Below are positions 57,512-57,525 of a stretch of 64,000 nucleotides of DNA, piece after piece; within the stretch, counting starts at the first letter, position 1; the number at the start of each line of letters is the position of its first letter. The notes below the pieces were generated by a model, which was not told the origin of the DNA, did no database searches, and saw nothing but the letters and a program-made list of their open reading frames with translations. The DNA is from Escherichia coli (lineage in GTDB: Bacteria > Pseudomonadota > Gammaproteobacteria > Enterobacterales > Enterobacteriaceae): the NCBI RefSeq assembly GCF_003334765.1, contig NZ_QOWT01000001.1. One strand, written 5' to 3'. The position numbers and the translations under genes are program-made.

Positions 57512-57525
57512 TTGATAACGATCAA
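57512..57525 (+). promoter_or_regulatory. FNR consensus site TTGAT-AACG-ATCAA upstream of ydhY
   Basis: Perfect match to TTGAT-N4-ATCAA read directly; ~200 bp upstream of ydhY ATG. Confidence 0.7.

Follow-up and report, generated by a model that had tools for sequence, protein, structure and literature searches.

The palindrome TTGATAACGATCAA, located upstream of ydhY in the DNA analyzed here (a stretch of 64,000 nucleotides from Escherichia coli, hereafter the window), is almost certainly the FNR operator of the class II FNR-activated ydhY promoter, in which a 7-2-7 element next to the start point would confer nitrate repression and an upstream Fur box would provide an iron input. It is the already characterized FNR site of the K-12 ydhY promoter, whose identity, position, binding and activation have all been published. 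The present analysis carries little weight as a discovery; it annotates the ydhY control region cleanly, in window coordinates (Table 1), naming the bases whose mutation would separate the iron, oxygen and nitrate inputs.

Table 1. Features of the ydhY control region in window coordinates
Feature	Position	Strand	Remarks
Terminator-like hairpin	57276..57304	+	Behind fumD/ydhZ, bounds the ydhY control region on its upstream side; stem of 12 bp and T-rich tail, from the terminator scan
Fur-box-like 19-mer TCAAATGATAATAAATATC	57459..57477	.	Centered at -93; 14/19 to GATAATGATAATCATTATC; motif scan
FNR box TTGATAACGATCAA	57512..57525	.	Class II position in the ydhY promoter (center, -42.5)
-10 hexamer CATTAT	57548..57553	+	Positions -13 to -8; read from the sequence
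Transcription start point	57561	+	Inferred (±1) by counting from the FNR site, published as lying at -42.5; taken second-hand
NarL/NarP-type 7-2-7 inverted heptamers TAACCAT-AA-AGGATTA	57563..57578	.	Predicted operator at +3 to +18; 12/14 to TACYYMT-NN-AKRRGTA
5' leader of the ydhY mRNA	57561..57725	+	About 165 nt, 41% GC; center variable between species
Ribosome-binding block GAAGAGGATGCGAAATAAATG	57708..57728	+	Shine-Dalgarno GAGG and start codon; almost unchanged in all orthologs (alignments)
ydhY coding sequence	57726..58352	+	208 aa, ferredoxin-like, first gene of ydhYVWXUT; ORF list and K-12 annotation (b1674)

The FNR box and its occupancy

According to the list of open reading frames, an intergenic region of 454 bp (57272-57725) separates fumD/ydhZ (57062-57271, + strand) from ydhY (ATG at 57726, + strand). 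The segment from 57230 to 57760 was 100% identical to that of E. coli K-12 MG1655, in whose annotation the neighboring genes are ydhY (b1674), fumD (b1675), ynhH and pykF, and coordinate conversion placed the FNR box at 1,754,678-1,754,691 of NC_000913.3, on the minus strand. Of 5,426 complete E. coli genomes, 5,424 contained the intergenic region, mostly with at least 95% identity.

A pattern search confirmed the claim of the initial annotation that the 14-mer fits TTGAT-N4-ATCAA at all ten specified positions, and revealed no other perfect match on either strand of the 64-kb window. The center of the box, 57518.5, was measured at 207.5 bp upstream of the ydhY ATG, close to the 200 bp or so given at the outset. 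Given that the surrounding DNA is only 22 to 28% GC, and that at least one perfect site appeared in 6 of 100 dinucleotide-preserving shuffles of the whole window (mean, 0.08 matches), a functionless chance match in AT-rich DNA had to be considered. However, for the intergenic region itself (33% GC), a first-order Markov model predicted 0.003 sites. Furthermore, the ten specified bases proved invariant in 26 loci of the Escherichia/Citrobacter type, whereas the flanks vary, as do three of the four bases of the spacer, and the published FNR ChIP peaks are centered on the box of an operon that is activated by FNR. Chance is effectively refuted already by these ChIP and expression data, and the probability that we leave to it is negligible.

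The in vivo evidence comes from Myers et al. (2013, PLoS Genet 9:e1003565; PMC3688515), and bears out the initial assignment of the palindrome to FNR control of ydhY, since the very same 14-mer was bound in ChIP and the operon was directly activated. Thus, Table S6 of that work lists TTGATCGTTATCAA, assigned to ydhY, as a predicted and bound FNR site at 1,752,702 (genome version 2), with a PWM score of 14.78. This sequence is the reverse complement of the window 14-mer, as it stands on the K-12 forward strand, and the offset of 1,976 between versions 2 and 3 puts the listed site exactly on the FNR box. The FNR ChIP-chip/ChIP-seq peak for ydhY (1,752,706 in version 2; Table S5) converts to about position 57521 of the window, within the box. 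In their Table 1, ydhYVWXUT belongs to Category 1 (directly FNR-activated), with one FNR site located at -42.5 from the known start and with higher sigma-70 occupancy and expression in the absence of O2, while Partridge et al. (2008) is named for the prior evidence of FNR binding. Table S8 has the operon as activated in each of its three datasets. The initial annotation had made its reading depend on a start about 40 bp downstream of the site and on FNR-dependent expression, and both are in the published record. In short, the window carries PydhY of E. coli K-12 itself (Partridge et al., 2008, Microbiology 154:608; Myers et al., 2013): the 14-mer, its -42.5 position and its activation by FNR are all shared, and no difference was found.

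In the same study, the FNR ChIP-chip signal of ydhY rose from 0.29 to 1.82 in an hns/stpA mutant (Table S7), and the FNR site is listed without overlapping H-NS or IHF ChIP-chip signal (Table S6). Nucleoid proteins would dampen FNR occupancy on the AT-rich upstream DNA, an effect that may be indirect given the absence of H-NS/IHF overlap.

Promoter anatomy and start point

Since the FNR box is centered at -42.5 (Myers et al., 2013, Table 1), transcription should start at 57561, leaving a leader of about 165 nt. This position agrees with that of the -10 hexamer and with the sigma-70 ChIP-seq peak at 1,752,642, which was higher anaerobically (46.88 versus 177.41; Myers et al., 2013, Table S2) and which converts to about 57585, so that it lies 24 bp downstream from the start inferred here. 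The ydhY start was absent from the genome-wide supplements of Kim 2012. The initial annotation had placed the palindrome in an AT-rich leader. The 454-bp intergenic region is indeed AT-rich, but the AT-rich stretch (22 to 28% GC over about 57350-57600; 25% over 57305-57560) is mostly promoter DNA upstream of a transcribed leader of 41% GC, and the box itself lies upstream of the start point, in the promoter.

The arrangement is that of a class II FNR-activated promoter: an inverted repeat that, in the data of Myers et al. (2013), lies near -41.5 of the start, is occupied in vivo and is accompanied by an FNR-dependent increase under anaerobiosis. The -10 element was found at a constant distance from the FNR box in all the loci compared (30/30; see below), as CATTAT, CACTAT, GATTAT or GACTAT. 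A consensus scan detected no -35 match at the ydhY promoter, as expected for a class II activator-dependent promoter, and for that reason it did not report the CATTAT promoter at all.

What the scan did report was a 10/12 sigma-70-like match at 57463-57491 on the + strand (ATGATA-17-TATAAT), which would start transcription a little upstream of the FNR box and belongs to a region recorded as a "promoter island", rich in overlapping promoter-like signals (PMC3661553). FNR could then be a repressor or roadblock for that promoter, or for read-through from fumD, and the real ydhY start would be elsewhere, nearer the ATG. Such an arrangement is highly improbable. FNR activates the operon rather than repressing it, and sigma-70 occupancy increases anaerobically; the TATAAT is not conserved in Citrobacter, whereas a CATTAT-type hexamer stands at the class II distance in every locus; promoter-like matches in the region were no more common than in shuffled sequences (4 found versus 3.3 expected); and a terminator-like hairpin follows fumD. 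The match at 57463-57491 was ruled out as not conserved and as incompatible with activation by FNR. It overlaps the Fur box, and a second 10/12 sigma-70 match was observed in the AT-rich upstream DNA, on the - strand (57385-57358).

According to the class II reading, in the absence of oxygen dimers of [4Fe-4S]-FNR would bind TTGATAACGATCAA at -42.5, standing in for a -35 element, and would recruit RNA polymerase to the weak -10 hexamer CATTAT, so that transcription would begin at about 57561. The ydhY promoter has been reported to be transcribed preferentially by E-sigmaS in vitro. The closest known relatives in design are the class II FNR promoters with a start-proximal nitrate operator, such as those of frdA, dmsA, nrfA and ynfE, in which, as in ydhY, the place of the -35 element is taken by an FNR box near -41.5. 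The ydhY promoter differs from these in that its FNR box is one base further upstream, its heptamers begin with TAA instead of TAC in the Enterobacteriaceae, and it has, in addition, a Fur box upstream and a leader of unusual length.

A candidate NarL/NarP operator at the start point

The scan with the NarL heptamer TACYYMT that had been suggested in the initial annotation was run and yielded a candidate at 57563-57578, consisting of two inverted heptamers with 2-bp spacing. Matches of this quality (12/14) numbered three in the 64 kb. Each ydhY heptamer fits at six of seven positions, with A instead of C at position 3 in the Enterobacteriaceae. NarL is known to prefer 7-2-7 sites, one of which, at -4/+6 of frdA, mediates nitrate repression. 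The title of Partridge et al. (2008, Microbiology 154:608) names NarL and NarP as regulators, and the position of the ydhY element, +3 to +18, would fit the repression by nitrate or nitrite that this title implies. The motif, its position and its conservation all point to the palindrome as the probable NarL/NarP contact. In the presence of nitrate or nitrite, phosphorylated NarL or NarP would bind there and block initiation or promoter escape.

Another of the 12/14 matches, TACCCCCAAAGGGGTG, falls inside ydhY (57890-57905); it is probably fortuitous, a by-product of the encoded peptide TPKGV, the synonymous sites being free to vary in the orthologs. Within the leader, the block GGTTAGG (57615-57621) is the reverse complement of the CCTAACC at the mRNA 5' end and is conserved in the Enterobacteriaceae only. 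This block may represent a third NarL-type heptamer, at about +55 to +61, or half of an RNA stem, for which the evidence is weak.

An upstream Fur box

About 50 bp upstream of the FNR box lies a Fur-box-like element that the initial annotation had not mentioned. Its match to GATAATGATAATCATTATC is moderate (14/19), as 10 positions in the window score at least 14/19 and the orthologs range from 13 to 16/19. A core, AATGATAATAAATATCA, is conserved at 57462-57478, with the core bases ATGATAAT.

Fur occupancy and Fur-dependent expression have both been published. Banerjee et al. (2020, PMC7157518) included ydhYVWXUT in the direct Fur regulon of strain CFT073, with mutant/wild-type expression ratios of 0.07 for fur, 1 for ryhB and 0.11 for the double mutant, which indicates that Fur acts positively and independently of RyhB. 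They observed a Fur ChIP peak at 1,910,890 of CFT073, and a peak in MG1655 as well. In CFT073 coordinates, the former lies about 17 bp from the center of the Fur box and 65 bp from that of the FNR box. In addition, ydhY and ydhV have been reported as members of a Fur iModulon. Taken with the match to the 19-bp consensus, its position and its conservation, these data argue for the 19-mer as the Fur contact. When iron is available, Fur would bind the box at -93, and this binding would be needed for full expression without the participation of RyhB.

The arrangement resembles that of Fur-activated promoters of the ftnA type, in which a Fur box also stands upstream of the core promoter and the effect of Fur is positive and RyhB independent. 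At ftnA, Fur binds upstream and counteracts H-NS. The upstream DNA of ydhY is likewise AT-rich, and FNR occupancy increases in the hns/stpA mutant. In contrast with ftnA, displacement of H-NS by Fur is without direct evidence at ydhY, whose FNR site has no H-NS overlap in the table cited above, and Fur works there together with a class II activator.

The fixed spacing of the Fur (-93), FNR (-42.5) and NarL/NarP (+10) elements across families may mean that Fur is an obligatory coactivator or an antisilencer for FNR. The nearly invariant ribosome-binding block, at the end of a long leader that otherwise drifts freely, may add posttranscriptional control. We put this forward as a tentative possibility, on balance doubtful. 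If Fur did act in this way, the iron-sulfur-rich YdhYVWXUT complex would be made only without oxygen, with sufficient iron and without nitrate. No dissection of coactivation or antisilencing by Fur, or of control through the ribosome-binding block, was found for ydhY in the literature searched.

The leader RNA

The initial annotation had anticipated either a long 5' untranslated region or additional regulatory layers. Both hold, in the form of a leader of about 165 nt, of the NarL/NarP-type 7-2-7 element and of the Fur box, the last of which was unforeseen.

A leader of such length could itself be the main additional layer, as a structured cis-regulatory RNA (a riboswitch, an attenuator, or a target for a protein or small RNA) that might sense, for example, the molybdenum cofactor of the YdhV molybdoenzyme. 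Every ortholog has a long leader (96 to 199 nt) that hardly varies in the final 20 or so nucleotides ahead of the ATG; the Shine-Dalgarno sequence could be enclosed in a short helix, UUGU/GCGA, and a terminator-like hairpin occurs at 57682-57697. However, no Rfam family matched at an E value of 1 or less over 56700-58000, the Moco riboswitch included, which ruled out this and other known riboswitches. The leader folded with a minimum free energy of -47.8 kcal/mol, corresponding to a z-score of only -1.43 (14 of 200 shuffled sequences folded as well), and RNAalifold found no conserved structure in 24 orthologous leaders (-0.21 kcal/mol, 6 pairs, 0 compensatory changes). Moreover, a deletion has removed the center of the leader in C. 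koseri, and in the Budviciaceae this part is unrelated. We regard a structured leader as an improbable candidate for the main additional layer.

One particular stem, CCUAACC (57561-67) with GGUUAGG (57615-21), was rejected. Single-base insertions in the 3' arm break the pairing in several Citrobacter species while the 5' arm is unchanged, and by eye on the alignments the paralogous copy in Citrobacter sp. NCU1 (see below) gives one compensatory and two broken pairs. The conservation of the 5' arm is better explained, from the alignments, as half of the 7-2-7 site acting at the DNA level. The conserved parts of the leader are its first 20 nt or so, where that DNA site lies, the GGTTAGG block of the Enterobacteriaceae and the ribosome-binding block. 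Most likely, then, the leader is a spacer whose ends matter.

Two small open reading frames in the leader were also rejected as coding sequences. The first, of 19 codons (MLNIRLLNCQHCVCEEDAK, 57666-57725), is not conserved outside Escherichia; its TAA directly abuts the ydhY ATG, and it has no obvious Shine-Dalgarno sequence. The second, MRNK (57715-57729), is likewise not conserved outside Escherichia and reads ATG-TGA in the Budviciaceae.

Conservation across orthologous loci

A scan of one genome per species gave 30 ydhY loci from Escherichia, Citrobacter (among them a MAG under the label Raoultella), Leminorella and Limnobaculum. One of these (L028), cut by a contig end, was left out, and the other 29 together with the window make up the 30 loci compared. 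The conservation of all the sites was computed from this set. The layout of Fur box, FNR box, -10 element, 7-2-7 palindrome and long leader was kept with fixed spacing in 29 of the 30 loci, which belong to two families, whereas the DNA between these blocks diverges. The FNR box, perfect in the Escherichia/Citrobacter type, matched at 9 of 10 positions in the three Budviciaceae loci (TTGATAACGATCAC). The 7-2-7 palindrome was present at +3 to +20 in 29 of the 30 loci, the exception being the paralogous copy mentioned above (9/14). In the Budviciaceae both of its arms differ, and yet the palindrome survives, with a better fit to the consensus (TACCCCC-TT-AGAGGTA, 13/14). In this family the Fur-like box stands at -89 instead of -93 and scores 16/19.

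This three-input layout (iron, oxygen and nitrate), together with the long leader, is therefore conserved from Escherichia to the Budviciaceae, and its conservation supports the view that a poorly understood molybdo/iron-sulfur oxidoreductase is kept under tightly conditioned expression.

Several variations on the layout were observed. Citrobacter sp. NCU1 carries two ydhY loci, L010 on contig_21 and L025 on contig_92. In the latter the FNR box is still perfect (TTGATAATGATCAA) and a Fur-like box is present, but the 7-2-7 element is degenerate; this copy may have lost nitrate repression, to judge from the sequence. In five other Citrobacter loci (L012, at approximately 2824-2843, L013, L030, L018 and L019), an insertion of about 19 bp directly follows the 7-2-7 site and holds a second palindrome (TACCCGTGTTTAGGGTA or TTCCTGTCTTGAGGGTAA), with 3-bp instead of 2-bp spacing, which may be a duplicated or extra response-regulator site. 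Within E. coli, strain PSS-16 (NZ_AP027713.1) and about 45 other genomes matched the intergenic region in part only (11% in PSS-16), a sign that the ydhY control region may have undergone a deletion or insertion in these few genomes.

For their part, the Leminorella and Limnobaculum loci (L024, L026 and L027; Budviciaceae) encode YdhY proteins 87 to 88% identical to that of E. coli, and they have the promoter modules in common with E. coli, the rest of the leader being unrelated. For loci of a different family, this pattern suggests that the ydhY operon was transferred horizontally along with its control region.
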